64,000 bases of DNA from a virus (IMGVR_UViG_3300032314_000513:1-64000), one strand, 5' to 3'; shown: positions 24,269 through 43,186, numbered from the stretch's first letter. Translations and numbers: made by a program. Notes: generated from the sequence alone by a model not told the origin.

Positions 24269-24269
24269 T

Positions 24270-24884: not shown

Positions 24885-24889
24885 ATTTT

Positions 24890-27576: not shown

Positions 27577-27687
27577 ATGAACAGTAAAGATTTAGTACCT
27601 GCTTTAGTAGGTTTTGGAATTAGCTTAGTTGGTGTTTACATCATCGTAAGAGTTGCTTCAGGAGCTTGGGCTTCAGGACAAAAATAA
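27577..27687 (+). CDS. 36-aa TM peptide (not in track)
   Basis: MNSKDLVPALVGFGISLVGVYIIVRVASGAWASGQK*. Confidence 0.65.
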   Translation: MNSKDLVPALVGFGISLVGVYIIVRVASGAWASGQK

Positions 27688-27697
27688 AAATAAAATA

Positions 27698-27817
27698 ATG
27701 GCGAAAGCAACAAAAAAAGTAGGCGTAGCAGATATTGCTAAACTTGCAAAGAAAATTAGGAAACCTAATGAAAAGTGGACTGATGCAATAAAAAGAGCAG
27801 CGGCCCAATTAAAGTAA
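27698..27817 (+). CDS. 39-aa basic peptide, candidate DNA-binding core protein (not in track)
   Basis: MAKATKKVGVADIAKLAKKIRKPNEKWTDAIKRAAAQLK*. Confidence 0.65.
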   Translation: MAKATKKVGVADIAKLAKKIRKPNEKWTDAIKRAAAQLK

Positions 27818-27823
27818 TTTAAC

Positions 27824-29431
27824 ATGGCAAAGAAGAATGTAGTCATCTTTGATGGGGAAGATAAATTTATCAACCCCAAAAAAGCCGTTTATAGCAAGTC
27901 AAAAGGACAATCAAAAAAAGCAGAGTCTTTTAAATCTGCTGTATCTGATGAAGATAGAAAAGGTCTTGTTGATGGAGGAGGTTCAGCAACTCAAGAGGCT
28001 GTTAGTGAAAACTTAACCGAACCGTCTGCTAATGATTCTCGTGTAGAAAGAACTGCAGTAAACAATATTCCTAGTATTACGGCACCTCCTATTGACATTC
28101 CTTCTCCTAGTACAATTGCTGCAGATATAAGGGCAACTGTGTTACCTAATATACAAACTAGTACTGTTACAAAAGAAACAGTAATGGCTCCTACTCCTCC
28201 ATTACCTTCATACGCTGCATCTTCTCCTGTTTCAGGTTTAGGTTTAAGTTTTGGTCAAAATGCCACAGCTAAAAGTTGTCCTGCAGGTTTTAGAGATTAT
28301 TTCGGTACATGTGTTCCTATAACAAACACTCAAGGTGCTTGTCAACAAGGTTACATGAAAGAGTACGAAGGTGGTCCTTGCGTTCCAATTCCTGCTTCTA
28401 CTTCAATTGGTGGATGTGCTGCAGGTTATGAATATAAAATGGGTATGAGGTCAGGTAGTTTAACTCCTGAAATGGGTTGTTATCCTATTGGTTCTACTCA
28501 AGATATTAATACAGGAAGTAGCACAGGTGCAATTTTAGGTGGTGGTGCAGGAACAAATATTGGTGGTGGTGGAACGGTTCAAGGCGGTGGTGGTTCTTAT
28601 GCTGATACTAGCGTTACTCAAGCAGCACAACCAAGTGCAGGTCTTACTTGTAATGATAATCAAATATTCGACCCTAAGACAGGAAGCTGTATACCAAAAT
28701 ATACAACTGCTCCTGTACCATGTCCTGCAGGTTTTACTTTAAATAAAGCTACAGGTACTTGTATAGAAAGTCTTAATCCTCAAGATTACAAATGCCCTCC
28801 TGTTGATTTACCAACTCCTCCTAAATGTAAAAAATATGCAGTAGTTGGAAAAGATACATTTGGATGCGATAGATTTGAGTTAGTAGACGATGCAGCTAAT
28901 TGTCCTGATGTAATTCAAGAGAAACCTATTGAATGTAAAGATGGTTTAATATATAGTGAAGCATTAAAAAAATGCGTAAATCCAATTGATGAGACTAAGA
29001 GACCTCCATTGACAACTCCTGAAGGAACTTGTCCTGTTGGTTATGATTGGAGTGTTGCTGAACAAAAATGTATTGCAAAATGTGAGGCAGGTAAAACTTA
29101 TGACCCTGTCAACATGATGTGTGTAGACACAACACCTAGCACTCCAAAAACTCCTTATTGCTCTGCAAATCAAGTTTGGGATGAAAAACTACAAAAATGT
29201 GTATTCTCAGGAACAATTACTAAACCTCCTGTTACTGCAAAACCTATTGATACTCTTGGTATTTTACCTATTGCACCTATTGATGGTGGTGGTTCTACAG
29301 GTGGAGGTGGAGGTGGTGGTGGAGAAGAATCCGTTGCAGCCGCTGTAGCTAAAAAGAACTATTTTTGGTGGTATGTAGGTGGTGCCGTATTAACATACTA
29401 TTTATATAAAAAATATTACAAGAAAAAATAA
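27824..29431 (+). CDS. Cys-repeat surface protein with C-terminal TM anchor
   Basis: Nine paired-Cys units (e.g. CPAGFTLNKATGTC) plus one 4-Cys unit, ending WWYVGGAVLTYYLYKKYYKKK. Confidence 0.75.
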   Translation: MAKKNVVIFDGEDKFINPKKAVYSKSKGQSKKAESFKSAVSDEDRKGLVDGGGSATQEAVSENLTEPSANDSRVERTAVNNIPSITAPPIDIPSPSTIAADIRATVLPNIQTSTVTKETVMAPTPPLPSYAASSPVSGLGLSFGQNATAKSCPAGFRDYFGTCVPITNTQGACQQGYMKEYEGGPCVPIPASTSIGGCAAGYEYKMGMRSGSLTPEMGCYPIGSTQDINTGSSTGAILGGGAGTNIGGGGTVQGGGGSYADTSVTQAAQPSAGLTCNDNQIFDPKTGSCIPKYTTAPVPCPAGFTLNKATGTCIESLNPQDYKCPPVDLPTPPKCKKYAVVGKDTFGCDRFELVDDAANCPDVIQEKPIECKDGLIYSEALKKCVNPIDETKRPPLTTPEGTCPVGYDWSVAEQKCIAKCEAGKTYDPVNMMCVDTTPSTPKTPYCSANQVWDEKLQKCVFSGTITKPPVTAKPIDTLGILPIAPIDGGGSTGGGGGGGGEESVAAAVAKKNYFWWYVGGAVLTYYLYKKYYKKK

Positions 29432-29438
29432 TTAAATA

Positions 29439-29834
29439 ATGGAAGCAAATGTAACTCCCCAAACAGCTCCTGCACCAATGGTTCCGCCTCCTGCCGCAGC
29501 TCCTGCTGCAGCTCCTATGGCTGCTCCTCCGATGGCTCCTCCACCTTATGAAGATGGTGGTGCTATTGTTAAAAAAGGTGGCGGAATAAAAGAATGGTTT
29601 AGCGATATTAATATTGTTGATGTGGCTGTAAGTGCTGTTATTGTCGGTGCTGTATTATATACTGTTCATTATTATAAATTTATGATGATGTTAGAAAAAT
29701 CAGGTTACGCTGATTTGAATACTAAAGTAGCTAAATTACAAAGTGCCGTAGATGCTCAAAAAGCTGAAATGAACGCTGCAGGTAATGGTAAGCTAGATAG
29801 ACAACGCAGAAAACCTGTAATGAGATTAGCATAA
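29439..29834 (+). CDS. Pro/Ala-rich single-TM protein
   Basis: PA-rich N-terminus, YEDGG, central TM, and MNAAG near the C-terminus. Confidence 0.7.
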   Translation: MEANVTPQTAPAPMVPPPAAAPAAAPMAAPPMAPPPYEDGGAIVKKGGGIKEWFSDINIVDVAVSAVIVGAVLYTVHYYKFMMMLEKSGYADLNTKVAKLQSAVDAQKAEMNAAGNGKLDRQRRKPVMRLA

Positions 29835-29846
29835 AATATATCCTTT

Positions 29847-30332
29847 ATGAAACAAAATAATAAATATATAATTCTAGGTATTTTAGCAATTGGTGGCTAT
29901 TTATTGTATAGAAAATATATGAAAAATAGTTCAACACAACCTGATTCTAATGTAAATTTTTTGGGTTTAAATATCCCTCCCATTCTAAATGATTGGAAAG
30001 ATAATTTTGATAATAAAAGATTAGATGAAATAACCAATAATTACGCACCTGACGGTATTTTAGTATCTACTTTTGGAGATATTTTAAAGGGTAGAAAGAA
30101 GATTAAAGACTATTTCAAAGGTTTATTTGAAAAAGATAATTTAAGTGTTGATTATTTAGGCACTCCTGATGTGAAAGACTTGAAAGATGTTAAAGTATAT
30201 ACAGGTTTATATCAATTTAATTATTTAGAAAATGGTAAAATGAATCATGTTAAATCAAGATATTCATTCATTTCTAAAGAGATTGATGGTAAAACTTATA
30301 TATTGAAACAACATTCTAGTGTTGCTAATTAA
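29847..30332 (+). CDS. TM-anchored NTF2/SnoaL-like protein
   Basis: YAPDGILVSTFGDILKGRKKIKDYF...ILKQHSS. Confidence 0.7.
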   Translation: MKQNNKYIILGILAIGGYLLYRKYMKNSSTQPDSNVNFLGLNIPPILNDWKDNFDNKRLDEITNNYAPDGILVSTFGDILKGRKKIKDYFKGLFEKDNLSVDYLGTPDVKDLKDVKVYTGLYQFNYLENGKMNHVKSRYSFISKEIDGKTYILKQHSSVAN

Positions 30333-30354
30333 AAGTTAAAAAAAACCATAAAAT

Positions 30355-31002
30355 ATGTTAGATTCAATATCTTGGGGAAATCCTCTCCAAAAGCATCTGC
30401 CGTACATTGAAAAAGACAACTTGACTTTTCTTGAGAAGTATTATCCTCAACTAATCAAGTATAGTTTCCCAAAAAACACTTCAAAAGCTACAAGAGAAGA
30501 ATTAAATCAGCTTGTAGATAATATTGAAGTTGCTAAATCAAACCCTGAGCATCTTAAAAGATATAAAGCTTATGATAATTCCCTTGTTAAAATATTTGGA
30601 GATGTAATTATTGAAAATAATTTAGGCGAAAAAGGAGCTGATTTGGTTGATAAGCTATTTGATGATACAGTTCCTTTAATCCTCAAGCTTAAATTCTTTT
30701 TTCAAAGACCTAGGCCTTATCAATTGGCTTACGCTTATAAATTAAAACTTTTCCCATTTTCATCTCCATCTTCAGATTCCCCTTCTTATCCTGCAGGACA
30801 TACTTTGCAGTCAGCTTTGATTTGCTATGTGTTGGGTAACCATTTCCCTGAAAAATTTGATTATTTTCAAAATCTAGCTAAAGACATAGAATACAGTAGA
30901 TTGTTCTTAGGTTTACATTACCAATCAGATAATGATTTTTCTTTATATATGTATGACTTAATTATCAGAGATAAGGAGTTTAAGGCGAAATATGCTTTAT
31001 AA
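30355..31002 (+). CDS. PAP2/haloperoxidase-fold phosphatase
   Basis: K....RPRP, PSYPAGH and SRLFLGLHYQSD. Confidence 0.8.
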   Translation: MLDSISWGNPLQKHLPYIEKDNLTFLEKYYPQLIKYSFPKNTSKATREELNQLVDNIEVAKSNPEHLKRYKAYDNSLVKIFGDVIIENNLGEKGADLVDKLFDDTVPLILKLKFFFQRPRPYQLAYAYKLKLFPFSSPSSDSPSYPAGHTLQSALICYVLGNHFPEKFDYFQNLAKDIEYSRLFLGLHYQSDNDFSLYMYDLIIRDKEFKAKYAL

Positions 31003-31403: not shown

Positions 31404-31448
31404 AAAAAGCATAATTATACATATATTTACAATGTGTAAAATTATACA

Positions 31449-31880
31449 ATGAACCAACAGAATGAAATTATATTACTTGAAGAGTTAATTTCTATAGTCA
31501 AAAACAAAGGCTATACCAAAACTTTAAATATTCTTAAAAAGAATAATACATCTTTTTTTGAGATAGATAATTCCTACGATAAATTTGTCGTAAACCTAAT
31601 TGCTAATACTTTTGAAATAGATTCAAATGACTTATTACAAAGTAGATATAGTAGAGGTAATATGAAATACGCTATTGGATTTTGCGTTTATTATTTGTAT
31701 CAAGAAAGAACACTTGGCTACATAGGTAAAAATATATTCAAGGATAAGAATTTAACTTTGCTATCAAGATATAGACAAATGATATTCGAATTAACTAAAA
31801 AGGATTTACCTTATTACGAAATAAAAGAAGATTTAGATAAAAAAATAGAAAATTTTAAACTTAAAAATAAAGTTAAATGA
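31449..31880 (+). CDS. Hypothetical protein, possible DnaA-C-like HTH
   Basis: IANTFEI...DLLQSRYSRGNMKYAIGFCVYYL...TLGYIG. Weak resemblance. Confidence 0.35.
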   Translation: MNQQNEIILLEELISIVKNKGYTKTLNILKKNNTSFFEIDNSYDKFVVNLIANTFEIDSNDLLQSRYSRGNMKYAIGFCVYYLYQERTLGYIGKNIFKDKNLTLLSRYRQMIFELTKKDLPYYEIKEDLDKKIENFKLKNKVK

Positions 31881-33028
31881 GTACTGAACAAAACATACCC
31901 ACCGAAGAAGTAAAACCAAAACAATCTCCTTCTAATTATAATCCATTTTTGGAGCAAGTTAGTGAAAAGCCATATTCAACTGTGAATGTTGGAGTTACCC
32001 AAGAACAATTAAAATCCTCTATTCCTGAGCCTGTTTATTCTCCTTTTTCAGTAGATTCAAACGAGAACCCATATAATATGTTAGGCGGAGACGGACAGCC
32101 TAGTGGAGGAGGACAAAAAAGGGAATCAGCACCTTTTAATCCTATGATGAATGATGTTTCTGATGGAGATAAAAAAATGGGTGCACAGCACATGGCTAAA
32201 TTATTAGTTGAAGGCTATGAGCAATTACATGTTTTTGGTAATAAAGCTTTGCAGGTACCTGAGAAAAAGATTAGGAAAATGGAAAAGGAAGGACTTATAG
32301 ATTTATCTATTCCGATTCCTTATGAATATGGTAAGACTATTACTGCAGGAGAATTTTTACAAGATTTCAATGAACAAAATAAAGATGCTTTAACAGTATC
32401 AAGAGAATTTAAAAAAGAAGTTACTCCTGTATTAACTAGAGTTTTAGAAAAAAGAGGTGCAGGATTAACTGATGAGCAATATTTAGGTTTTTTAGTTGGT
32501 AAAGATTTAGTGGTAAAATTAGTTATTGTAGCACAATTGCGTTCTACTATGAATGACATGATTAATGTAATTAAAGATTATACAGAAGCTACAAGAGCAG
32601 GTGGTGGTGTACCTCCGCAGCCTCAAGCTCCTACTCCTCAAGCTCCTACTCCTCAACCATCAGCTCCACAGCCACAATATCAAGAGCCTTCTCATTCAGC
32701 ACCTGATTTTAACTTTCAAGATAATGAAGTGGTAATGAATAGTACAGTACAACAAATGCAAGTTCCTAGCACAGGTAAAGCAAGAGTTATTGCACAAATT
32801 CAAAAAGAAAAGAAATGGAAAAATGATGCGGATAAAGCAGGTGGGGGGTCATCTTACGAACAAGCTATGAAAGAAAGAAAAAATAGTGGCAAAAGAGGAA
32901 GAAAAAAAGCAAAAGATTATGTTGATGAAGTAAAAATGGATGAAGACCAAATTGCTGAAGCTATAATTTTGAATGAGACTATTAATCAACCTAAAAAGGT
33001 TAAGGACCCTTACGCAGATTTAGATTAA
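31877..33028 (+). CDS. Hypothetical Pro/Gln-rich protein (possible assembly factor)
   Basis: 383-aa ORF two genes upstream of the ATPase. Confidence 0.6.
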   Translation: MSTEQNIPTEEVKPKQSPSNYNPFLEQVSEKPYSTVNVGVTQEQLKSSIPEPVYSPFSVDSNENPYNMLGGDGQPSGGGQKRESAPFNPMMNDVSDGDKKMGAQHMAKLLVEGYEQLHVFGNKALQVPEKKIRKMEKEGLIDLSIPIPYEYGKTITAGEFLQDFNEQNKDALTVSREFKKEVTPVLTRVLEKRGAGLTDEQYLGFLVGKDLVVKLVIVAQLRSTMNDMINVIKDYTEATRAGGGVPPQPQAPTPQAPTPQPSAPQPQYQEPSHSAPDFNFQDNEVVMNSTVQQMQVPSTGKARVIAQIQKEKKWKNDADKAGGGSSYEQAMKERKNSGKRGRKKAKDYVDEVKMDEDQIAEAIILNETINQPKKVKDPYADLD

Positions 33029-33029
33029 T

Positions 33030-33317: not shown

Positions 33318-33318
33318 T

Positions 33319-34140
33319 ATGGCAAGAGAACCTATGCTAATGGCTGCCTGTGGAAAGAAAGGGGTGGGTAAAAGTTATCAGCACATGATTCTCATGAACC
33401 AATATGTTCAAGGAGATTATTATAATGGTGTAAGAGGTAGAAAATGTTTGATAATGGATGTTAATGATGAATATGGTCATGGTACTTATTATGTACAAGC
33501 TTTATCATTAAAAGATGTTTCATTATTTTCTGTACATCCTAATGTTGAAATTAGAAGAATTAGGCCGTTTCATCCAAATGGAACTAGAATGACTTTAGAT
33601 GAATGGGCTCAAGCTTTATTCTATGTTTTAAATAGATTCAGAAATGGTTTATTATTAATTGAGGATGTAAATAAATTTATTGGAGACCATTTACCAAATG
33701 ATTTAGTGGGTTCTATTGCAACTAATCGACATGTTGGTTTAGATATAATTCTTTCTTATCAGTCTTTAGGTAGAATTAATACTAAGATTTGGGGTAATTT
33801 AAACCAATTAAGATTCCATAAAAACAATGAGAGTGTTGAAAGACATGCTTTAAAATTCCCTGATAAAGCCGAGTTTATGCGTATTGCAGAGATTATGGTT
33901 AATAATGAATATGCAAGAGGCAATAATAGATTTTTTTTATATGTAGATATGGATGAATCTAAAATTAGAGGTAATATTAATGATGAATTAAGAGAAGAGG
34001 CTCTAAATCAATATATTAACGAAAACTACAATATTCTTTTAAAGCCATTTTTGGTACAAAGAGATGGCAACAAGAAAAAACATACTACAGAAACTGCTAT
34101 AAAAGAGATAAAACAGAGACTTACTTCAGCCTATTTTTAG
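33319..34140 (+). CDS. A32/FtsK-HerA-type genome packaging ATPase
   Basis: N-terminal Walker A GKKGVGKS, Walker B LLLIED, and arginine-finger signature TNRHVGLDIILSYQS. 273 aa, no nuclease domain. Confidence 0.85.
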   Translation: MAREPMLMAACGKKGVGKSYQHMILMNQYVQGDYYNGVRGRKCLIMDVNDEYGHGTYYVQALSLKDVSLFSVHPNVEIRRIRPFHPNGTRMTLDEWAQALFYVLNRFRNGLLLIEDVNKFIGDHLPNDLVGSIATNRHVGLDIILSYQSLGRINTKIWGNLNQLRFHKNNESVERHALKFPDKAEFMRIAEIMVNNEYARGNNRFFLYVDMDESKIRGNINDELREEALNQYINENYNILLKPFLVQRDGNKKKHTTETAIKEIKQRLTSAYF

Positions 34141-34182
34141 GCTTTTTGCTTGATTTTCAGGCTTATATACCCATCTAATACA

Positions 34183-34215
34183 CCCTTTCCTATTTATTCA
34201 GGAAGGGGTTTTTTT
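34183..34215 (+). terminator. Intrinsic terminator
   Basis: CCCTTTCCT-loop-AGGAAGGGG followed by T7. Confidence 0.8.
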
Positions 34216-34307
34216 ATTTTCAACTAATTATATACATATAAAAGTAGCTATATAAAAAAGTTACAAAAAACTGATTAATTTATTTCTATTAATGCCTAGT
34301 AATTACC

Positions 34308-34315
34308 TAAATTTG
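34308..34315 (+). promoter_or_regulatory. Bacteroidota-type -7 box TAAATTTG for the capsid operon
   Basis: Matches TAnnTTTG between the terminator and the small ORF/MCP. Confidence 0.55.
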
Positions 34316-34380
34316 ATATGTCAATGCTGAATCTGTATTCACAATGACACTTATTCATAAAACAATTAAATAGTATTAAG

Positions 34381-34488
34381 ATGAATTTCAAAGCAATCGC
34401 AGGACAATTACTAATCGTTGCAGGTGGTGTTGCTCTATACATGTTGGCTATAAAGCCTATGTTAGACAAAGCTAATGTATCTAAGTAA
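34381..34488 (+). CDS. 35-aa TM peptide co-transcribed with the putative MCP (not in track)
   Basis: MNFKAIAGQLLIVAGGVALYMLAIKPMLDKANVSK*. Confidence 0.7.
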   Translation: MNFKAIAGQLLIVAGGVALYMLAIKPMLDKANVSK

Positions 34489-34544
34489 TCATAGAAGTAA
34501 ACGAATTTAAAATCAAATTAATTCAAAATTAAAATTCATTAAAA

Positions 34545-35243
34545 ATGAGTAGTATTCAACGCTATTTACAAATGGCAAACCGTCAAGTAAACGAATCGTT
34601 TATTGGCGTAGATGGTTTTGTAGACGATGACATGTATTTTGCAGCAGGAGATAATTTCTTCGGTGCAGACGGTACAGAAGCAGCTCCTGCTGCAGCACCT
34701 GCAGTTATGCGTTCTCAACCTTACATCTTAACAGTATCTAACGCTTCTAACGCAGCAGTTACTATTGATGTATTCGGAGCTTATATCTATTTGAACAACG
34801 CAGGTTTTTCAGGTGGAAGCTTAACAGTAAGCAATGTTACAATCACTTCAGGATTGTCAAATGTTACTTACTATAACTTATTGAACCAATCATCTGTATC
34901 TCCTTTCACAATTGGAAGTACTTTGATTTCTTCAGTAAATGGTACAACTAGCCAAGTGTTACAACCTTTAACACTTAGCACTTTAGATGCAAACGGTAAC
35001 CAAGCAACTAAAATCTTAACTCCTGTTATTGACCCGTATCAACAACAAAGTGGTGTTATTGAATTGAAACAACCATTCAGAATTGATGGTTTCACTAAGT
35101 TAACTTTCAGCATTTATGCTTCAAGTTCTGTTCAATTCCAATTCTACCCTTCTGATACAATCAACATCGCAAGAGGTTTAGGTGGTAACGCTGTATCTAA
35201 GCAATATGGTAGTCCAAAAATTATCAGACCGGCTTCTCGTTAA
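34545..35243 (+). CDS. Putative major capsid protein, single jelly-roll
   Basis: ~175-aa beta-strand-patterned domain after an acidic arm and AAPAAAP linker. Follows the packaging ATPase, has its own promoter and terminator, and is enriched in TTC/AAC/ATC/CGT codons relative to neighbours. The fold is inferred. Confidence 0.65.
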   Translation: MSSIQRYLQMANRQVNESFIGVDGFVDDDMYFAAGDNFFGADGTEAAPAAAPAVMRSQPYILTVSNASNAAVTIDVFGAYIYLNNAGFSGGSLTVSNVTITSGLSNVTYYNLLNQSSVSPFTIGSTLISSVNGTTSQVLQPLTLSTLDANGNQATKILTPVIDPYQQQSGVIELKQPFRIDGFTKLTFSIYASSSVQFQFYPSDTINIARGLGGNAVSKQYGSPKIIRPASR

Positions 35244-35270
35244 TCCGAGTAGATTAGGAAAAATATAAGA

Positions 35271-35312
35271 AAGGGGCGAGAGTGTGATTTTATCTTACTC
35301 CGCCCTTTTTTT
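35271..35312 (+). terminator. Intrinsic terminator after putative MCP
   Basis: AAGGGGCG(A)GAGT-loop-ACTCCGCCC followed by T7. Confidence 0.75.
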
Positions 35313-35325
35313 AATTAAAATTTAG

Positions 35326-35333: not shown

Positions 35334-35337
35334 TGTT

Positions 35338-35757
35338 ATGTCATTACCTAGAGTAAATATATTCAACTATACCGCTGCAGCTAACCCTTATTTCGTTAAG
35401 AGTTTAGCCCATAAGTATGGTTATGAATTTGATAAGGACCAAAAATTAGATACTGTTTTACAACAACTAGTAACTTACGAAGGTGAACCTGTCATGATGG
35501 AAATAATTGAGAACAGTCCTGATAAGGATTTATTCATGGATTATTTTGAAAAGAAGTATGGCAAAAAAGAAGAAAAGAATAATTCAAATGAATTAGGTGG
35601 TGCAAGACTACTTGATACTTATATGAATTTCACAGGACAACTACAAGCTGCACAACAAACTGCTGAAAATAAAATGTTGACAAAAGAAACAAGTGTTATG
35701 GTTTTACTTGGTGCAGTTCTTATTTCATTCGCAATAATGTTTAAAAACAACAAATAA
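35338..35757 (+). CDS. Virion membrane protein candidate (MNFTG motif, C-terminal TM)
   Basis: TYMNFTGQ and VMVLLGAVLISFAIMFKNNK. Confidence 0.7.
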   Translation: MSLPRVNIFNYTAAANPYFVKSLAHKYGYEFDKDQKLDTVLQQLVTYEGEPVMMEIIENSPDKDLFMDYFEKKYGKKEEKNNSNELGGARLLDTYMNFTGQLQAAQQTAENKMLTKETSVMVLLGAVLISFAIMFKNNK

Positions 35758-35758
35758 T

Positions 35759-36427
35759 ATGGCACTTTCAGCAATAGAAACTGCAAAAGAATTAATTTCA
35801 TACGCAGTCGTAACAGATAAGAATGGTTTAGTTAAGTTATTACAAAGAAATGGTATTGAGTTACCAAATAATCCTTCTGACAACGAAGTAACAGTTGCTG
35901 TCTTGATGGCAAATAATAAAAGTGGTGTTTTCAGAAATGAATTAAAAAAATATTTAGGTGGGTTAGTTCCTGAAATATCTAATTATACAACAGAATTAGG
36001 TGGTGGAATGAACTTCACAGGTACAGATGATTTTTCTTTTACTGCAGGAGATGATAATTTTTATAATGCAACCGCTGCTGAGGCAAAAGCCTTAAGGGTA
36101 TCAGCTACAAATCCTACAGGCAAAACTAAAGTAGGTTTAGCATTAGCAAGTATTGGAACTTTCTTTAAAGATAGTGTACTTACAAAAGATAATATCAACG
36201 CAGGTATTAATATTGGTTTAACTAGTTTAGCTAATAAGACTCAAGCACAGCAAAATGCTGTTACTGCTCAGTCTTTACAATTACAAAATTATCAAGATAC
36301 TTTAAGACAACAATTACCTAATGCAGATAAGAAATCTAACACTATGTTATATGTATGGATTAGTGTTGGTGTGTTAGCTGTTGGTGTTTTAGGATTTGTT
36401 TTATACAAATCATATAAGAAGAAATAA
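35759..36427 (+). CDS. Virion membrane protein candidate carrying a copy of the MCP-arm motif
   Basis: MNFTGTDDFSFTAGDDNFYNATA, plus a C-terminal TM and KKK. Confidence 0.7.
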   Translation: MALSAIETAKELISYAVVTDKNGLVKLLQRNGIELPNNPSDNEVTVAVLMANNKSGVFRNELKKYLGGLVPEISNYTTELGGGMNFTGTDDFSFTAGDDNFYNATAAEAKALRVSATNPTGKTKVGLALASIGTFFKDSVLTKDNINAGINIGLTSLANKTQAQQNAVTAQSLQLQNYQDTLRQQLPNADKKSNTMLYVWISVGVLAVGVLGFVLYKSYKKK

Positions 36428-36618
36428 TGTCCAATAATAAAAAAATATTATTAATTGGAGGTGCTTTGGTAATAGCATATCTTTTATTAAAAAAGAAAAA
36501 AAATACTTTGGTTAGTGAAAATGGAAAAGAAAAGATAGTGCAGTTTGACCCTATAAATGTTAAACCAATGCCATGGATAGGTGTTCCAAATTCACTTCCT
36601 GAAATTAAAATAAATTAA
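36427..36618 (+). CDS. Small N-anchored membrane protein
   Basis: ILLIGGALVIAYLLLKKKK. Confidence 0.7.
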   Translation: MSNNKKILLIGGALVIAYLLLKKKKNTLVSENGKEKIVQFDPINVKPMPWIGVPNSLPEIKIN

Positions 36619-36619
36619 A

Positions 36620-36754
36620 ATGACTAAAGAGAATAAAGAATTATTATGGATAAGTGGATTTGTATTTGTTTTATATACACTTTATAAGATATATGAAAAG
36701 AAATATCAATCAGTTCCTGATTCAGTAGTAATTCCAACAGAGTTCGAAAATTAA
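36620..36754 (+). CDS. 44-aa TM protein (not in track)
   Basis: MTKENKELLWISGFVFVLYTLYKIYEKKYQSVPDSVVIPTEFEN*. Confidence 0.65.
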   Translation: MTKENKELLWISGFVFVLYTLYKIYEKKYQSVPDSVVIPTEFEN

Positions 36755-36781
36755 ATTAAATAACAAACAAAAACAAAAATT

Positions 36782-36925
36782 ATGTTAAAAGGTAAAAATT
36801 TATGGATTTTATTAGGTGTAGGTGCTGTAGCATACTACTATTTTATGATGAAGAAGAAAAAAGATGCTGCTGCTTCTGCTCCTGCAACTGCTGCAACTAA
36901 CTTCACAGGAACTATGGGATATTAA
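36782..36925 (+). CDS. 47-aa TM protein, paralog of the next gene (not in track)
   Basis: MLKGKNLWILLGVGAVAYYYFMMKKKKDAAASAPATAATNFTGTMGY*. Confidence 0.75.
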   Translation: MLKGKNLWILLGVGAVAYYYFMMKKKKDAAASAPATAATNFTGTMGY

Positions 36926-36949
36926 TTTTAAATTTTAAAAAATTAAAAA

Positions 36950-37222
36950 ATGTTAAAAGGTAAAAATTTATTGATTATTGCAGGTGTTGCTGCTGTAGGT
37001 TATTATTTATATAAGAAAAATCAAGATGCTAAAGTAATTGCTCCTGCAACTGCTGCAAAGAACTTCACAGGAGACTTAGATGTTTTAGCAAATCAAAACT
37101 TTACAGGAGATTTAGGTGTTCTTAACGCAAGTGGTCCTAGCGATAGACAATTAAATAGATTAGAAAAAGTTATGACTAGAAATCCACAAAGAGCTCAAAG
37201 AATGATTAAAAGAATGTTCTAA
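36950..37222 (+). CDS. TM protein with NFTG x2 and NASG motifs
   Basis: MLKGKNLLIIAGVAAVGYYLYKK...APATAAKNFTGDL..QNFTGDL..LNASG. Confidence 0.75.
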   Translation: MLKGKNLLIIAGVAAVGYYLYKKNQDAKVIAPATAAKNFTGDLDVLANQNFTGDLGVLNASGPSDRQLNRLEKVMTRNPQRAQRMIKRMF

Positions 37223-37240
37223 TCAGATAATTTAAAAATT

Positions 37241-37633
37241 ATGACAAATACAAAAAAAGTATTGTTATACGCAGGTGCTGTTATAGTAGGTTACCATTTA
37301 TGGAAATACTACAGTAAGCCTAAAAGCGTATTATTAAAAGGTTCTGATGCTGACACACCTGAAAAGGTAGAATATAGCACAGGAAAAGAAGGTATGTTAG
37401 GTTCTGATGGTTCTTTAGATACAATGATTAATTTAAAGAAACCCATCTATATTAGACCTCAAAATTCTATTCCTAATGTTTATGATAGAGGTATTGGACA
37501 ATTTATTAATGGTAGCGGTGGTTACATGAACGCAACAGGTTTTCATGAGAACTTAGCTACAGCTTGTAACGCTAAAACAGTTAAAAATTTAGGTGCTACA
37601 AAAATTGATATACCTATAATACCTCAAAACTAG
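37241..37633 (+). CDS. N-anchored membrane protein (MNATG)
   Basis: TM, then MLGSDG and YMNATGF. Confidence 0.7.
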   Translation: MTNTKKVLLYAGAVIVGYHLWKYYSKPKSVLLKGSDADTPEKVEYSTGKEGMLGSDGSLDTMINLKKPIYIRPQNSIPNVYDRGIGQFINGSGGYMNATGFHENLATACNAKTVKNLGATKIDIPIIPQN

Positions 37634-37636
37634 AAA

Positions 37637-37777
37637 ATGAATAAAACAACAAAATACATTTTAATTTATGCTGCAGTAGCAGGTGGAGTTTATTTACTTT
37701 ATAAACAATATCAAGTTATGCAAAATAAATTAGATGGAGATTCCGCTTTAAAAAAGTGGAACGCACAACACAATTAA
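37637..37777 (+). CDS. 46-aa TM protein (not in track)
   Basis: MNKTTKYILIYAAVAGGVYLLYKQYQVMQNKLDGDSALKKWNAQHN*. Confidence 0.65.
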   Translation: MNKTTKYILIYAAVAGGVYLLYKQYQVMQNKLDGDSALKKWNAQHN

Positions 37778-37787
37778 AATAAAAACA

Positions 37788-38024
37788 ATGGCAGAGGCAA
37801 AAGATATATTAGATAAAGTAAAACAATTAAAATCTAATTCTGAAAGCATGGCCTTAAAGAAAATGAAAGGAACTGTTTCAGGAGCATTGATTGGCATGGG
37901 TGGAGGCTTACTAATAGGATTTACAAGAGGCTATAGTTTAGTCTCTTCTGCGTTTGTAGGAGCTTTACTTGGTGGTGTTATATCTCAAGTTTTATTACCT
38001 AAATTAGATGATAATAATGAATAA
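37788..38024 (+). CDS. Gly-zipper 2-TM membrane protein
   Basis: GALIGMGGGLLIG...FVGALLGGVIS. Confidence 0.7.
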   Translation: MAEAKDILDKVKQLKSNSESMALKKMKGTVSGALIGMGGGLLIGFTRGYSLVSSAFVGALLGGVISQVLLPKLDDNNE

Positions 38025-38703
38025 TAAGTACATCAAAATGGCAGCTTTGGCTGCTATCGCAATAGGTGGTTATTTAGTGATTAAAAATTTACTAGGTAAA
38101 TCTGTTGGTACGCCTAAGCAAGTGGGTGATTCCGAAGCAGGAACAAGTAATGGTAAGGCTACAGTTTCTAATTATTTCCCTTTGGCTAAAGGTAGTAAAG
38201 GAGAAAAGGTTCGAGAACTACAGACTATTTTAGTAGGTATTGATGCAAACGCATTACCTAAATACGGTATTGATGGAGACTTTGGAAGTGAAACAGAAGC
38301 TGCTTTATTTAAGTATTTGAATAAGAAAAGTGTTGATAATCAAGAAGATATAGCTACTTTAAATTCTTTAAAGACTACCGCACAATCTAAAGCTTTAGCA
38401 TCTTCAATAAACGCTAATAGAAGTATAACTGCGAATGAAATTATCAATAATTGGAAGTTAAACAATACTAAAAGTGTTTATGCAGCGAACGACTTAGGAT
38501 ATGTTATAGGAGATTTATCAGCATCAGGCTTAGAATTAAACGCTGTAAACAAATACGCCAAGAAAGGTGATGTTATTGTTAATGGATTTGAAATTAAAGA
38601 TATGAAAGTACTACCTAGTGGATACATTATGGCTTCAATAGGTGTACTTGGCCTTGGGGGTAAATTTGCTAAATTTAGTCCTTTCGGTGTGATGATAAAT
38701 TAG
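38017..38703 (+). CDS. TM-anchored protein with peptidoglycan-binding domain (PG_binding_1-like)
   Basis: FPLAKGSKGEKVRELQ...YGIDGDFGSETEAAL. Start is 38017 or 38008. Confidence 0.75.
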   Translation: MNNKYIKMAALAAIAIGGYLVIKNLLGKSVGTPKQVGDSEAGTSNGKATVSNYFPLAKGSKGEKVRELQTILVGIDANALPKYGIDGDFGSETEAALFKYLNKKSVDNQEDIATLNSLKTTAQSKALASSINANRSITANEIINNWKLNNTKSVYAANDLGYVIGDLSASGLELNAVNKYAKKGDVIVNGFEIKDMKVLPSGYIMASIGVLGLGGKFAKFSPFGVMIN

Positions 38704-38731
38704 TAATTTTAAAGCAAAAAATAACCATAAA

Positions 38732-39022
38732 ATGGAAGAAGTGAATTTAGATAAAAAGCTTACTGCTAACCAACTTTTTAAAGAATATAAAGACGAGGGT
38801 GGCACATTGAATTTTTCAGATTGGTTGACTAGAGAAAAGACAAAAGGTATTTTCCCTATAAATTCTAATCTAAATCAAGAAGTAGGTAAAAAATTAACTG
38901 ATTTAAAACAAGAAGAAATGAATAAAACAGTTTTAGGTTTCCCTGTAAGCACCTTATTAATAGCAGGTGGAGTAATCATAGTAGCAATAGTTGCTGTTAA
39001 TGTATTAAAAAAGAAAGCATAA
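38732..39022 (+). CDS. C-anchored membrane protein
   Basis: LLIAGGVIIVAIVAVNVLKKKA. Confidence 0.7.
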   Translation: MEEVNLDKKLTANQLFKEYKDEGGTLNFSDWLTREKTKGIFPINSNLNQEVGKKLTDLKQEEMNKTVLGFPVSTLLIAGGVIIVAIVAVNVLKKKA

Positions 39023-39303
39023 TGAAAAAAGATAATTTTATTTGGTGGGTATTAGGTGGCGTTGGAGCTGTTGCTCTTTGGTATTATTATCAGAATAATA
39101 AAAAGAAAGTAACAACACAAGACTTAATAGTTGATGTTCTTAAAGAAGAGCAAGATAAGTATAGTACTCCTTTTAAGGCTGAGTACAATATAGTCATGCC
39201 TTCTGATTTAGTGTCAAAGAGAGTAAGAGAAAAAGGAGAACAATTAAGAGCAGGTAGATTTGAAATCCAACCTGATAAAGTACAAGCACCTTTATTTATA
39301 TAA
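39022..39303 (+). CDS. N-anchored membrane protein
   Basis: FIWWVLGGVGAVALWYYYQNNKKK. Confidence 0.7.
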   Translation: MKKDNFIWWVLGGVGAVALWYYYQNNKKKVTTQDLIVDVLKEEQDKYSTPFKAEYNIVMPSDLVSKRVREKGEQLRAGRFEIQPDKVQAPLFI

Positions 39304-39304
39304 G

Positions 39305-40111
39305 ATGCAGTACAAATTGTGGACAAGATATGAACCTGTAATGGTTAAAGTTGTGGTAAAAACAAATTCACCTCAACTTATTGTGTTAAAGGCATTTGAC
39401 CCAACACAAGCCAATACAGTTTTTATGGAAAGGGAAAAAACCATTGAAGGAGTACAAGAGTTGTATGTAAGGATGCCATTATCCCCTAGTTCAACTGCTC
39501 TATCAATTTATAATAAAAAAAATGGCAACTTACCAAAAGGTAAGGATAGTTCTTTTGAAGTAGTGGAAATTAAAAAAGAAGATTTGGACATTACCTTGGG
39601 TCAAACCAAAATGGACAATTCTTTAGTTAGGAATTTTGTTGCTTTTGCTCAGAAGTTTGCATTTAACGCAGGTTGGATACAAGCTCCAAAAGATTATATA
39701 AGTACAGTAGGTGCTTTTAAAATTGAATACTTACCTTATATAACAAACAACAAAACAAATGCAAAGATGGCTACACCTGCTCGTATAAGTACCAAGAATG
39801 GTCGTATACAAGTGTCTCAGGAAGCTTTCTTACCATTTACTATTCCTATGAGAATGGCAATATTATTACATGAGTTTAGCCATTTTTATTTGAATAGCGA
39901 TATTTCTAATGAGACTGAAGCGGATTTGAACGGACTTACAATTTATTTAGGATTGGGCTACCCTATCAAAGAGGCCTATTCTGCTTTTATAGATACCTTT
40001 ATTGGTTATCCTACAGAACAGAACAAAAGAAGATATGATATAATCAATAGGTTCATAAAGGACTATATTGAAGAATATAAAATAAAAGATGTCTACGCTG
40101 TAGGCGAATAA
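39305..40111 (+). CDS. Zinc metalloprotease-like protein (HExxH...ExEAD)
   Basis: MAILLHEFSHFYLNSDISNETEADLNG. ATG 39305 is preferred over TTG 39260. Confidence 0.7.
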   Translation: MQYKLWTRYEPVMVKVVVKTNSPQLIVLKAFDPTQANTVFMEREKTIEGVQELYVRMPLSPSSTALSIYNKKNGNLPKGKDSSFEVVEIKKEDLDITLGQTKMDNSLVRNFVAFAQKFAFNAGWIQAPKDYISTVGAFKIEYLPYITNNKTNAKMATPARISTKNGRIQVSQEAFLPFTIPMRMAILLHEFSHFYLNSDISNETEADLNGLTIYLGLGYPIKEAYSAFIDTFIGYPTEQNKRRYDIINRFIKDYIEEYKIKDVYAVGE

Positions 40112-40121
40112 AATTAAAGTT

Positions 40122-40649
40122 ATGGCAGATAAAGGTGCTTTACGAGTTTATACAGAATTACCACAATGGGCTAAAGGTGTTGTAGTCGTGGGTGGACTTG
40201 TTGTAGGTTACATAGCTGTTACTGCTATTTTAAGAAAGATAAAAGAAGCTAAAACTAAAGCAGAATCTTTAACAGAAGTTAACGATGCTACTAATGAATT
40301 ACAAACTGAAGTAAAAAATGGTAAAAGACCAACAATAGCTAAAACAACTGTTGAAGCAATGGCTAATGCAATTGTAGCAGCTTCAAATGATTGTGGAACA
40401 GATGAAGAAAAAATTTATTCTCAATTTGATAAAGTAAGTAATCAAGCAGATGTTTTATTATTGGTTCAAGTATTTGGTTTAAGACAAAAAGTAAGATGTC
40501 CTTTCTCAGATGACCCTAGAGAGTCTTTCTTCTCAGCAAATACACCTCCAATGTCATTATCAGCTATGTTAAATTCAGAATTGGATACAACACAGATGCA
40601 GACTTTGAACAATAAATTAGCAACAAAAGGAATTAAATATAAATTTTAA
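40122..40649 (+). CDS. Membrane protein with annexin-like GTDE repeat
   Basis: TM, then DCGTDEEKIYSQF..VSNQADVLLLVQVFG...LSAMLNSEL. Confidence 0.5.
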   Translation: MADKGALRVYTELPQWAKGVVVVGGLVVGYIAVTAILRKIKEAKTKAESLTEVNDATNELQTEVKNGKRPTIAKTTVEAMANAIVAASNDCGTDEEKIYSQFDKVSNQADVLLLVQVFGLRQKVRCPFSDDPRESFFSANTPPMSLSAMLNSELDTTQMQTLNNKLATKGIKYKF

Positions 40650-40652
40650 TAT

Positions 40653-41267
40653 ATGGCACTTTTTGAATCAGAAAAAAAGAGAGTAACAGAAGCAAGTAAT
40701 AGCTATGCACAGAAATATCCTTTAAGTGATAACATATCTAACTTACAAGCTAGTGTTAATGCGGCTAATGTAGATTTAGTTGGTTTAAGAAATGAACAAC
40801 CTGAAACTGCAGGAGGTAAGCGTGTAAGACAAAGAAACATTACTGCTTTATCTAATAGAATTATGCAGCTTCAAAATAAAATTAAAGATTTACAAAGCGG
40901 TATGAGTGGTAGTGATATTATTAAAATTGCTTATCCTTCTTTTGCTACTCTTCCAAAAGTTACTTCTCAAACTATTTTAGGAAGTACACCATATAGCTTT
41001 CAGATACCAATGTTGAATATGCCAAATAGCGTTAAAAATATAGCAAAATCAAAACCTGCATCAACTACAACTGATGCAACTGATTTAGCTGATAGTATTG
41101 CAAATAACGATGGTGTGCCTGTAGGTGGAGAAGCAAATGGTGCTAAAGGTGATTATCCACCTCCTTATGGAGTTCAAAATTCAGGAAGTAAATCAATATT
41201 ATTGTACGGTGGATTAGCAGTAATATTAGGTTTTACAGCTTATTATATGTTTATAAAGAAAAAATAA
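40653..41267 (+). CDS. C-anchored membrane protein, helical-hairpin paralog family
   Basis: KYPLSD...AGGKRVRQRNITAL is shared with the next gene. Confidence 0.7.
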   Translation: MALFESEKKRVTEASNSYAQKYPLSDNISNLQASVNAANVDLVGLRNEQPETAGGKRVRQRNITALSNRIMQLQNKIKDLQSGMSGSDIIKIAYPSFATLPKVTSQTILGSTPYSFQIPMLNMPNSVKNIAKSKPASTTTDATDLADSIANNDGVPVGGEANGAKGDYPPPYGVQNSGSKSILLYGGLAVILGFTAYYMFIKKK

Positions 41268-41271
41268 TTAT

Positions 41272-41736
41272 ATGGCAATATTAGGACCAACAGGTAAAAA
41301 AATAGCAATAGGGGCAGCAGTAGCAGGTGGTTTAACACTTGCAGGAATAGGTATTGCTAAAAACGCAGAGCAAAAAAGAGTTTTAGCGGCTGAAGATGAA
41401 ATGAAAAAGAAATATCCTTTCTCAGAAGATTGTCTTCAAATGCAACATATATATAAAACAGCAAAACTTACTTTGGCTCAATTAGAAGCTGAATCAGGTG
41501 GAGATGCAGGTGCTAAAAGAGTAAGAGCAAGAAATGCAGCAGCTTTAAAGAAAAGAATTTTAGAGCTTGAAAATTATATACCAAATTTAGATTGCTCAAA
41601 GGCGGTTTTAGCTCCTGATGGGTTACCACAAGCTTCACCTGCTCCTGCATCTAATATTACTAAATATTTGTTATATGGTGTTGCAGGTTTAATTTTATTG
41701 GTGGTATTTTCTAACTTAATGAAGAAAAAAGACTAG
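41272..41736 (+). CDS. Membrane protein, helical-hairpin paralog family
   Basis: KYPFSED...AGAKRVRARNAAAL. Both ends are hydrophobic. Confidence 0.7.
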   Translation: MAILGPTGKKIAIGAAVAGGLTLAGIGIAKNAEQKRVLAAEDEMKKKYPFSEDCLQMQHIYKTAKLTLAQLEAESGGDAGAKRVRARNAAALKKRILELENYIPNLDCSKAVLAPDGLPQASPAPASNITKYLLYGVAGLILLVVFSNLMKKKD

Positions 41737-41738
41737 TT

Positions 41739-42413
41739 ATGGCAATAGACATGATTGAAAATAATGAACTTGGTGCCCTTGCAAAAAGCAGATTAGGGGA
41801 TACTAAGCAGTTTACTGATGAAAACCAAAAGTTTAAAAACTTCTCAGGTAATGAGGAGGTTTTTCAAAGAGTAGACATAAATGAAGAGTTTGAAAACCTT
41901 TTTGGAAGTAAAACATTCAAAGACAATAAAGCAAAAGCTACTAAAGAAGCTGAAGATTTTGTCGCAGCTTTACCAAAAGGTAATTGTGATGATATTGAAA
42001 AAAGTTTAGAAAGACTTGCTTTATACATTGAAGCTCAAACTAAAGAATTGGGATTAGCTAAAGGTCATGTTACTGAATATCCTAAAAACAGATTAATAGT
42101 AGCTAGAAAAGCAGAAGCGAATTTAAAAATGGCACAATCTAATGCTGATTGTTTAAATATACAAGCTAAAGCACAATCTGAAGCTAAAAAAGCTGATTTG
42201 ATAAAGACTTTAACTAATGTTTCAGAAGCTAGTGTTCAACAAGCAAAAACAGACCTTTTTGGCACTCCTGTAGGCCAACCTTTGTACGCACCTGCTACAA
42301 GTGGTGAAGGGGCATTAAGTTCTGTGCAAAATGCACTTGGTTCTAATAAAAATTTATTAATTTACGGTGGAATTGGAGTAATTGCTCTAATTCTCTTATT
42401 AAGAAGAGACTAA
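41739..42413 (+). CDS. C-anchored membrane protein (NFSG)
   Basis: FKNFSGN, and LLIYGGIGVIALILLLRRD. Confidence 0.7.
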   Translation: MAIDMIENNELGALAKSRLGDTKQFTDENQKFKNFSGNEEVFQRVDINEEFENLFGSKTFKDNKAKATKEAEDFVAALPKGNCDDIEKSLERLALYIEAQTKELGLAKGHVTEYPKNRLIVARKAEANLKMAQSNADCLNIQAKAQSEAKKADLIKTLTNVSEASVQQAKTDLFGTPVGQPLYAPATSGEGALSSVQNALGSNKNLLIYGGIGVIALILLLRRD

Positions 42414-42415
42414 GA

Positions 42416-42907
42416 ATGAAATATTTAAAACCTGCATTGATAATTAGTGGATTAGGCGTAATTGGTTACGCCCTTTTCCGTTATTATAAGAAGCAAATAG
42501 ATTTTGTAAAAGATATTCAATACACCATTTCAGGGTTAAAAATTGTTAATATCGCTAAAGAAGATGTTACACTTGAAATATTTTTAAAAGTCTATAACGC
42601 ATCTAATGTCGAAGCTAAGGTTACTGAGATTTTTCTTGATGTAATTATGAATGGTACGAAAGTAGGTTCAATTAATGAATCAACTGAATTTACTATTAAG
42701 CCAACACAAACAACTGAGGTAAGCTATAAATTTAGCTTTAACCCTAGCTTGGTTATTAAAAATATTGTTAATATATTGACTTTGACTGTAGCATTGAAAG
42801 ATGTTGTAATAGTAGCAGATGGATATATGAAAGTAAAGAGTGGTTTTTTATCAACAACAATACCATTCACATATCAAAACACATTGAAAAATCTTTTAAA
42901 AAAATAA
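42416..42907 (+). CDS. TM-anchored LEA_2/WHy-like protein
   Basis: LEIFLKVYNASNVEAKV...DVIMNGTKVG...IKPTQTTEV. Confidence 0.65.
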   Translation: MKYLKPALIISGLGVIGYALFRYYKKQIDFVKDIQYTISGLKIVNIAKEDVTLEIFLKVYNASNVEAKVTEIFLDVIMNGTKVGSINESTEFTIKPTQTTEVSYKFSFNPSLVIKNIVNILTLTVALKDVVIVADGYMKVKSGFLSTTIPFTYQNTLKNLLKK

Positions 42908-42910
42908 GAA

Positions 42911-43186
42911 ATGGGAGCAACTAATATTTGGTCTAAAACAATTACTAATGATTCATTAACTGTATCAGCTAGTCAAAATGTAGTTAGAATATCAATTTTA
43001 GCTAGACAAGGACCTGTAACTCTTTTAGGTACAGCAACCTTTAATGGTGCTGCATCAGATTTAGTTACTTTTGCTACGGGCCAAGGTGTAACACTAACTG
43101 CAGCATCAACACAAAATCCAATTGATGGAGTATCTATAAATGTTGCAGGTGGTGGAATAGCAGATGTAGTATTATCTTATCAATAA
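42911..43186 (+). CDS. Small all-beta protein (vertex or fibre-base candidate)
   Basis: 91 aa with alternating beta pattern, located before the fibre genes. Confidence 0.45.
   Translation: MGATNIWSKTITNDSLTVSASQNVVRISILARQGPVTLLGTATFNGAASDLVTFATGQGVTLTAASTQNPIDGVSINVAGGGIADVVLSYQ

Follow-up and report, generated by a model that had tools for sequence, protein, structure and literature searches.

We analysed a stretch of viral DNA of 64,000 nucleotides (the window), which corresponds to bases 1-64000 of an 84,379-bp IMG/VR record (IMGVR_UViG_3300032314_000513); the remaining 20 kb of the record were also read. Positions 27,577 to 43,186 of the window encode a putative genome-packaging ATPase, a neighbouring protein predicted to have a jelly-roll-class fold, and a long series of small membrane proteins. 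An earlier note, made from the sequence alone, had read this region as belonging to a large tailless virus of Bacteroidota with an internal membrane. All genes and hairpins that we describe from it are on the + strand, as is nearly every gene of the record up to 57.5 kb, and the G+C content of the record is about 32%. The record (G000) was compared with relatives of 100.3 kb (G001) and 84.7 kb (G003), with three others in the range of 79-100 kb (G002, G004 and G005) and with one more distant contig (G006).

The gene at 33319-34140 encodes a protein of 273 amino acids (aa) that is predicted to be an ATPase of the FtsK-HerA superfamily. Its open reading frame (ORF) is real and carries the two Walker motifs seen in the earlier note. 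In an alignment of 18 sequences, 51-87% identical to the query, the Walker A residues G12-K13-K14-G15-V16-G17-K18 (in GKKGVGKS, residues 12-19) and the Walker B pair E115-D116 are invariant. R137, H138, D142 and Q148 are also invariant among these homologues. This upholds most of the further motif that had been written as RH.G....Q (R137, H138 and Q148), but not its glycine, which varies. Q148 comes after strand 142-147 in the structure model, so that R137 and Q148 may correspond to the arginine finger and to the conserved Gln at the end of the sensor strand in the P9/A32-specific region.

With 383 clusters at 90% identity, found on contigs of up to 88 kb, the ATPase family is a large one, and its sequence matches are few. 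The best Pfam match is AAA_22 (E 0.07), the PHROG matches are marginal ('terminase large subunit', 2.3e-4; Zot-like, 0.0097), and there is no NCBIfam family for it. Pox_A32 (PF04665) matched neither the ATPase nor anything in the five genomes searched. The alignment profile compared with PDB sequences gave matches at the level of the P-loop only, none of them to B204, and tblastn returned nothing at E 0.01 among 50,697 phage records, in which the presence of the membrane-containing virus SSIP-1 is unconfirmed. PF01935 is annotated on some homologues, and DUF87 or Zot on 12-20% of the members of related Atlas clusters; the Atlas clusters of the ATPase bear mostly Uroviricota labels.

In a Foldseek search with the AlphaFold model (pLDDT 88.7, pTM 0.85), the B204 packaging NTPases of STIV2 and STIV lie within the top 13 ranks (E 3.7e-08 to 8e-07), STIV2 B204 being structurally the closest, at a sequence identity of only 15-18%. 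The Zot N-domain and HerA rank behind, and structure comparison places B204 ahead of Zot by about 7 Z units. VirB4, TrwB and TcpA are also among the structural neighbours. The protein has no nuclease domain. Since B204 is the nearest solved structure, we regard the ATPase as a predicted FtsK-HerA-superfamily enzyme, by fold and not by sequence profile, and as kin to the packaging motor of a tailless membrane virus; by analogy, genome packaging is its proposed role. Hence, the earlier description of the enzyme as 'A32-type' agrees with its fold but finds no counterpart in Pfam.

Downstream of the ATPase gene lie the two ORFs that had been described there, a 35-aa single-pass membrane peptide recognised from its translation (34381-34488) and a beta-rich protein of 232 aa (34545-35243). 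The model of the 232-aa protein, built from an alignment of 60 sequences, is confident (pLDDT 87). It comprises a helix (residues 3-19), a disordered arm (about 20-50) and a beta-sandwich of eight or more strands (about 56-220). Three structure searches all returned jelly-roll proteins, and the predicted fold is of the jelly-roll class, as had been supposed. The matches include the coat proteins of a nepovirus (GFLV), a comovirus (CPMV), STMV, SPMV, STNV and picornaviruses, as well as PR772/PRD1 P31, the N-domain of PM2 P1 and capsid proteins of FLiP, phiCjT23, PBCV-1 and faustovirus. Viral single jelly rolls dominate the lists, which also contain TNF/C1q, nucleoplasmin, concanavalin A and carbohydrate-binding modules. 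A search of BFVD returned mostly the C1q/TNF-like heads of collagen-like proteins and is uninformative on capsid identity. By sequence, the protein has no match in Pfam, PHROG or NCBIfam; its alignment profile gave chance-level matches only to PDB sequences, tblastn found nothing at E 0.01 in the same phage records, and the ESM Atlas returned no named cluster (best score 0.88). Its own family is nevertheless large, with 351 clusters at 90% identity and 563 at 50% identity (E up to 0.001).

The two genes are linked. The 232-aa gene adjoins the ATPase gene in 65 related loci, and the two proteins are conserved to a similar degree (46-47% identity to G003 and G001 for the 232-aa protein, versus 52% and 46%, respectively, for the ATPase). 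A terminator-like hairpin with a T-run follows the ATPase gene (34182-34209), and a strong terminator hairpin follows the jelly-roll gene (35266-35313; -25 kcal/mol, z -6.1), running into a U-tract; none of 200 shuffled sequences folds as well. Both terminators had been noticed before. As it lies between the two, the 232-aa gene belongs to a short, separate unit. The promoter that had also been noticed is less evident: sigma-70-like matches occur at chance level (19 versus 15.7 expected) and the Bacteroidota -7 motif TAnnTTTG is not enriched genome-wide (58 versus 55 expected from base composition), with one of its copies upstream of the 35-aa ORF (34308-34315). The place beside the ATPase gene, the ATPase-like conservation, the separate unit and the N-terminal arm together suggest that the 232-aa protein is the major capsid protein. 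A helix and arm ahead of a jelly roll are typical of shell proteins.

The family has a second member in this genome, a 223-aa protein encoded outside the window (record 69542-70213), about 35 kb from the 232-aa gene. The two are related by BLASTP (E 2e-5), and the 223-aa protein matches the family profile with an hhalign probability of 96% (E 4.6e-9). Searched with the hidden Markov model of the family, three divergent genomes (G000, G001 and G003) yield exactly two members each, a form with the arm (about 232 aa) and a form reduced to the core (149-223 aa; 149-153 aa for the orthologues in G003 and G001). The pair is also present on the contig of the distant relative (G006). Around the short paralogue (record 69198-72924, L002:6198-9924), a small N-anchored membrane protein and the paralogue form a conserved pair, the membrane protein coming first in 3 out of 3 genomes. 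In this genome, the stop of the short paralogue overlaps the start of a gene for a 903-aa protein, which is Thr-rich with long Thr runs, has many Cys and is spike-like. Paralogue and 903-aa gene are candidates for a vertex module of penton and spike.

All the family members of this genome are single-domain. Three related clusters (397, 456 and 411 aa) hold two full jelly-roll domains in tandem, each half aligning to residues 56-203 or so of the 232-aa protein, and these forms occur on real contigs from different samples (P0259, L086:8001-9194; P0377, L087:1600-2970; P0386). The tandem gene of L086 lies among glycosyltransferases, ahead of a DUF5661 polyvalent gene, and not beside an ATPase gene. 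With two members in every genome examined and tandem doubles in some relatives, the earlier idea of one single-jelly-roll major capsid protein therefore fails.

We identified membrane segments by a scan for charge-free hydrophobic segments and by reading the translations. Genes with such segments number 22 in positions 27577-43186, about 27 between 23 and 43.7 kb, and 46 out of 129 ORFs genome-wide (36%), so that the earlier count of about 25 single-pass proteins was fair. In many of them, an N-terminal anchor precedes Tyr and Lys residues. The block opens with a 36-aa single-pass membrane peptide (27577-27687; hydrophobic residues 6-24), which has homologues in 9 related loci. It is followed by a Cys-rich protein of 535 aa (27824-29431) with repeated CBM14-like units (Pfam CBM_14, 4.8e-08), a Gly run, a C-terminal anchor and a basic tail; given also its weak match to phrog_8482 ('attachment protein'), this is a candidate membrane-anchored surface or adhesion protein. 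Two membrane-anchored proteins of 131 and 161 aa come next (29439-30332; hydrophobic residues 62-76 and 7-21), and then a PAP2-family lipid phosphatase (30355-31002; Pfam PAP2, 1.8e-08), a candidate lipid-remodelling enzyme with homologues in 72 related loci and in both G001 and G003. Between it and the ATPase gene lies a conserved gene for a 383-aa protein (31877-33028) with a helical middle, a Pro/Gln linker and a basic C-terminus. It is as widespread as the ATPase (79 related loci) and has 380 database homologues, none of which has a Pfam domain; the protein itself matched nothing in Pfam, PHROG or NCBIfam. We consider it a candidate packaging-vertex or scaffold partner.

Beyond the jelly-roll gene, thirteen consecutive small genes (35338-39303; 44-231 aa) each encode a predicted membrane segment. 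Three of them, starting at 35338, 37788 and 38732, are core genes, found in 58, 41 and 38 loci respectively, and the same run includes an anchored peptidoglycan-binding-like protein (38008-38703; weak matches to PG_binding_1 and to endolysin PHROGs). The next gene (39305-40111) encodes a 268-aa core protein with an HExxH motif. Its orthologues in G003 and G001 are 45-46% identical, it has no family match in Pfam or NCBIfam, and it may be a zinc metallopeptidase, a candidate for a virion-associated or maturation enzyme. Five more membrane-anchored proteins follow (40122-42907), the last of which (42416-42907) combines an N-terminal anchor with a LEA_2 beta-sandwich (Pfam, 8e-09) and is a core gene with orthologues in G001 and G003. 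The block ends with a soluble protein of 91 aa that is beta-rich by its translation (42911-43186), with no family match in Pfam or NCBIfam and no BLAST orthologue in G001 or G003. The 22 to 27 membrane-protein genes of this module and the conserved PAP2 suggest that the particle may have an internal membrane.

The genes common to this record, G003 and G001, which we call the core set, extend beyond the block. They comprise the PAP2 protein, the 383-aa protein, the ATPase, the jelly-roll protein, several membrane proteins, the HExxH and LEA_2 proteins, the short jelly-roll paralogue and its partner, RecT, an exonuclease, proteins of 247 and 292 aa, a MoxR-type AAA protein, glycosyltransferases and polyvalent-protein domains. 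A search of NCBIfam with ten core proteins of unassigned function gave no match.

We looked for genes of tailed phages in two ways. Pfam or PHROG scans covered large ORFs over the whole record, including all but one of those of at least 150 aa, and matched no family of terminase, portal, HK97 capsid, tail tube, sheath, tape-measure or baseplate proteins. We also made six-frame searches with Terminase_6N (PF03237) on G001 to G005, and with TerL_ATPase (PF03354), Phage_capsid (PF05065) and Phage_portal (PF04860) on G000, G001, G003, G004 and G005; the five relatives are of 79-100 kb with a CheckV completeness of 90-100%. None of the four families matched in the genomes searched, while the positive controls gave matches. 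No tailed-phage family came up in Pfam, either, for ten large ORFs that lie mostly in parts of the 100-kb relative not shared with G000. Hence, the earlier statement that terminase, portal, HK97 and tail genes are missing from the window extends to the 84,379-bp record and to four relatives of 79-100 kb.

The record is classified in IMG/VR as linear without end repeats, with a CheckV completeness of 75%, and our own search found no terminal repeats in it. In G003, the final 50 bases (84656-84705) match positions 440-489 perfectly in inverted orientation, and this 50-bp match may stem from the assembly or belong to a terminal inverted repeat; the repeat search in G001 gave a weak internal match only. 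The window has no tRNA genes, and no DNA polymerase was found in this genome. With a contig of 84.4 kb at 75% completeness and relatives of up to 100 kb, this genome exceeds the known bacterial examples of the plan in size, as had been proposed.

The flanks of the block contain the fibre and lysis genes that had been reported. Collagen-like fibre genes, proposed to encode vertex fibres, occupy 43621-55623 (+ strand), with matches to PHROG tail-fibre and collagen families (to 3e-80) and to Pfam Collagen; three have the intramolecular-chaperone domain Peptidase_S74, and they are the only tail-like genes found in the record. In G003, a single ORF of 5338 aa (52323-68339, L090-L091) matches several of these genes, so that a fibre module of at least five genes here is a single giant gene in that relative. 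On the other side, peptidoglycan-hydrolase and small membrane-protein genes (22060-25486, + strand; Glucosaminidase twice, Glyco_hydro_19) form a candidate lysis cassette. The gene at 23806-24087 encodes a basic protein of 93 aa and is the most conserved gene between the distant genomes (57-63% identity versus 46-52% for the ATPase). The genes at 11768-22049 have domains of polyvalent proteins (DUF5661, ART-PolyVal, LPD29, MoxR-type AAA_5, DUF7192, DUF2958 and DUF5824); they are separate here and fused into proteins of 1000-1500 aa in the matching regions of G001 and G003. A dense island of glycan- and protein-modification genes adjoins the fibres (55653-64000, continuing in the record to 66271, and also 7079-11487). 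It includes six genes of the 2OG-Fe(II) oxygenase family, a sulfotransferase, glycosyltransferases (GT1, GT2, GT9 and GT25-like), DUF6445 and a polysaccharide deacetylase, which suggests that the virus encodes the hydroxylation and glycosylation of its own fibres.

Several genes bear on the host. The two glucosaminidases, the GH19 enzyme, the polysaccharide deacetylase and the peptidoglycan-binding-like protein point to a bacterium with peptidoglycan, and RecT and N6/N4 DNA methylases are further signs of a bacterial host. Shine-Dalgarno-like motifs (AGGA, GGAG or GAGG at most 20 nt upstream) precede only 1 of the 129 ORFs, a count that a rough estimate places below chance at this base composition. 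Such scarcity fits Bacteroidota, but the motif is little used in other lineages as well. One distant relative is on a 67.9-kb contig binned with a metagenome-assembled genome (MAG) of Chitinophaga. Other relatives were binned as Bathyarchaeia and Gammaproteobacteria, and these bins conflict, so binning is no guide to the host. A sample of 400 other genomes from the phylum to which the Chitinophaga MAG belongs contained no match to the jelly-roll profile, which fits a virus that does not integrate. The Bacteroidota host of the earlier note is thus plausible but unproven: the near-absence of Shine-Dalgarno motifs and the Chitinophaga bin speak for it; the other bins disagree, and TAnnTTTG is not enriched. 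A eukaryotic virus was considered, given the CBM14, collagen, EF-hand and prolyl-hydroxylase-like domains, and was set aside in view of the peptidoglycan hydrolases, RecT, the polyvalent domains and the compact operons with intrinsic-type terminators.

The gene plan matches that of membrane-containing tailless viruses, with a B204/P9/A32-like ATPase, putative shell proteins of jelly-roll type and numerous small membrane proteins, but the size fails to fit any described bacterial or archaeal family of such viruses. STIV, of the Turriviridae, has an archaeal host and about 17 kb of DNA, and its capsid protein is a double jelly roll. Its B204 and that of STIV2 are the nearest folds to our ATPase, which differs by a helical C-terminal extension of 53 residues; the genome is 5-6 times larger and the jelly rolls are single-domain. 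PRD1 and PR772 (Tectiviridae) and PM2 (Corticoviridae) have genomes of 10-15 kb, and PRD1 has a protein-primed polymerase; here we saw no double jelly-roll capsid protein and found no polymerase. PF04451 did not match in the genomes searched. Phage_Capsid_P3 (PF09018) gave no match either, but it matched no control genome, so this negative shows nothing. Relative to Bamfordvirae and Abadenavirae in general (Tectiviridae, Corticoviridae, Turriviridae and Autolykiviridae), the jelly rolls of this genome are single domains, and tandem doubles occur in the three related clusters. Known tailless membrane viruses of bacteria have genomes of 9-17 kb, apart from SSIP-1 at about 44 kb, which is to our knowledge the largest of them; the genome analysed here is about twice as large or more. 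SSIP-1 is reported to have a PRD1-type architecture, two capsid protein types and a genome nearly without database matches (PMC6356626).

A further comparison is with viruses that have two single-jelly-roll capsid proteins. Sphaerolipovirus-type viruses carry a packaging ATPase and have their two capsid genes next to each other. The Sphaerolipoviridae, Simuloviridae and Matshushitaviridae are tailless, with an internal membrane and two single-jelly-roll capsid proteins (PMC12643093, PMC12642351, PMC12714852). The Halopanivirales (Helvetiavirae; SH1, HHIV-2, SNJ1, P23-77 and IN93), now placed in the realm Singelaviria (PMC12714852), have genomes of 16-31 kb (PMC12643093, PMC12642351), a range that excludes both the 84,379 bp of our record (75% complete) and the 79-100 kb of its relatives. 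The two members of one jelly-roll family per genome seen in this lineage might correspond to such a pair of vertical single jelly rolls. Unlike the adjacent capsid genes of those viruses, however, they lie about 35 kb apart, one is short and core-only, and there is no sequence similarity. We found no description of the lineage in the literature searched; FtsK-HerA ATPases do appear in an Antarctic virome paper, but in connection with polinton-like viruses only.

Taken together, these results make it likely that the window holds the morphogenesis region of a double-stranded DNA virus of bacteria, of at least 84 kb and probably about 100 kb, built on the tailless plan of PRD1, STIV and sphaerolipoviruses and not on that of a tailed-phage head. 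Direct support comes from the fold of the ATPase and its nearest structural neighbour, the jelly-roll-class fold, a family with two members in each genome, the density of membrane-protein genes, the undetected hallmarks of tailed phages, and the size and spread of the lineage. From these we infer the capsid role of the 232-aa protein, a vertex role for the short paralogue, the internal membrane, an icosahedral shape and a bacterial host. By analogy with PRD1 (reviewed in PMC6356626), some 25-30 viral single-pass proteins and PAP2 would mark and remodel a patch of host membrane. The patch would become an internal vesicle, on which the 232-aa jelly-roll protein would assemble as a shell, with the short paralogue (record 69542-70213) at the vertices and the collagen-like fibres decorating the particle. 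The B204-like ATPase, probably with its 383-aa neighbour, would then drive the viral DNA through a membrane-spanning vertex into the particle already formed, and the Glucosaminidase and GH19 enzymes would release the progeny.

The same genes could be read in other ways. A divergent member of Caudoviricetes would require that the hallmark genes are too diverged to be recognised or lie on the missing quarter of the genome, that the ATPase has another DNA-pumping or assembly role, and that the jelly roll is a decoration, fibre-head or receptor-binding protein. The contig is indeed incomplete, and the ATPase has its marginal match to 'terminase large subunit'. The fibre genes resemble those of tailed phages both by their matches to numerous PHROG tail-fibre families and by their Peptidase_S74 domains, and in BFVD the jelly-roll model is paired chiefly with C1q/TNF-like heads of collagen-like proteins. 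However, four relatives of 79-100 kb (CheckV 94-100%) lack all four hallmark Pfam families that the controls matched, the ten large ORFs of the 100-kb relative add none, and tail tube, sheath, tape-measure and baseplate families were never matched. The ATPase is nearest to B204 and not to terminases and has no nuclease domain, and 36% of the ORFs have membrane segments, a share that is usually far lower in tailed phages. We therefore consider a tailed phage quite unlikely.

Much of the evidence on the ATPase and the jelly rolls also bears on a non-icosahedral or enveloped virus (pleomorphic, spindle- or vesicle-like), in which the membrane proteins would form an outer envelope, the jelly rolls would be lectin-like surface proteins or spike proteins, and the ATPase would serve DNA transfer or assembly at the membrane, like the Zot/pI ATPases of filamentous phages. 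The Zot labels of Pfam on 13-14% of members in related Atlas clusters would suit this, as would the failure of the jelly-roll matches to separate capsid proteins from lectins and TNF-like proteins, and the heavy outlay on glycosyltransferases, 2OG oxygenases and a sulfotransferase. Yet B204 exceeds Zot by about 7 Z units, the helix and arm before the jelly roll are typical of shell proteins, and the order of ATPase, small membrane protein and jelly roll, with a second short copy, is that of icosahedral membrane-containing viruses. We know of no pleomorphic or filamentous bacterial virus of 80-100 kb, and such a virus seems unlikely here. A non-viral mobile element, such as a conjugative or vesicle-transferred plasmid with an FtsK/HerA/VirB4-like ATPase for DNA transfer and the membrane proteins as transfer apparatus, is very improbable. 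It could claim VirB4, TrwB and TcpA among the structural neighbours, the polyvalent domains DUF5661, ART-PolyVal, LPD29 and DUF2958, which also occur in conjugative elements, and DUF932 in the 100-kb relative. But the scanned ORFs contain no relaxase, coupling protein or type IV secretion family, the ATPase is minimal and single-domain like B204, without the extra domains of VirB4 and TrwB, and the genome has a candidate lysis cassette as well as fibre genes whose chaperone domains are of phage type. IMG/VR lists the records, and the absence of the jelly-roll family from the 400 genomes of the Chitinophaga MAG phylum indicates that it is no common chromosomal or plasmid passenger there.

It is important to highlight what weighs against a tailless, membrane-containing virus. 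The record is a fragment, judging by its CheckV completeness and its lack of terminal repeats, and the '100%' estimates of CheckV for the relatives come from a tool whose training did not include this lineage. Profile searches can miss HK97 or portal genes that have diverged very far, and the fibres resemble the tail fibres of tailed phages, although tailless viruses also bear fibres at their vertices. The ATPase has no sequence match to any packaging family in Pfam or in the profile search of PDB sequences. The capsid assignment draws on weak structural matches, and none of the solved vertical single-jelly-roll capsid proteins (P23-77, SH1 and HCIV-1) is among the matches listed. Structure models cover the ATPase and the 232-aa protein, and the virus is known here from its genes.

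A broader version of the tailless, membrane-containing reading is possible, and we put it forward tentatively. The genomes may represent an undescribed and environmentally widespread lineage of high rank (family to class or above), of tailless, membrane-lined bacterial viruses with genomes of 80-100 kb, which would be at least double what is known for membrane-containing viruses of prokaryotes. Its capsid family, with single and fused tandem forms, would then record a transition from single to double jelly rolls separate from that of Varidnaviria. At the level of sequence, the jelly-roll family is large and unnamed, without a match in Pfam, PHROG, NCBIfam or the phage records searched.

Large genomes on the jelly-roll plan are so far a feature of eukaryotic giant viruses. 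If our interpretation is true, a common aquatic lineage of 80-100 kb would show that this architecture scales up in prokaryotes too, and the non-tailed virome would gain a large fraction that is currently mislabelled, the Atlas clusters of the ATPase being mostly assigned to Uroviricota. A family in which single and duplicated jelly rolls coexist would also bear on the origin of double jelly-roll capsids, the question behind the recent split between Singelaviria and Varidnaviria (PMC12714852). Finally, a virus with its own PAP2 and about 30 stereotyped membrane anchors would be a tractable system for understanding how viruses build internal membranes.

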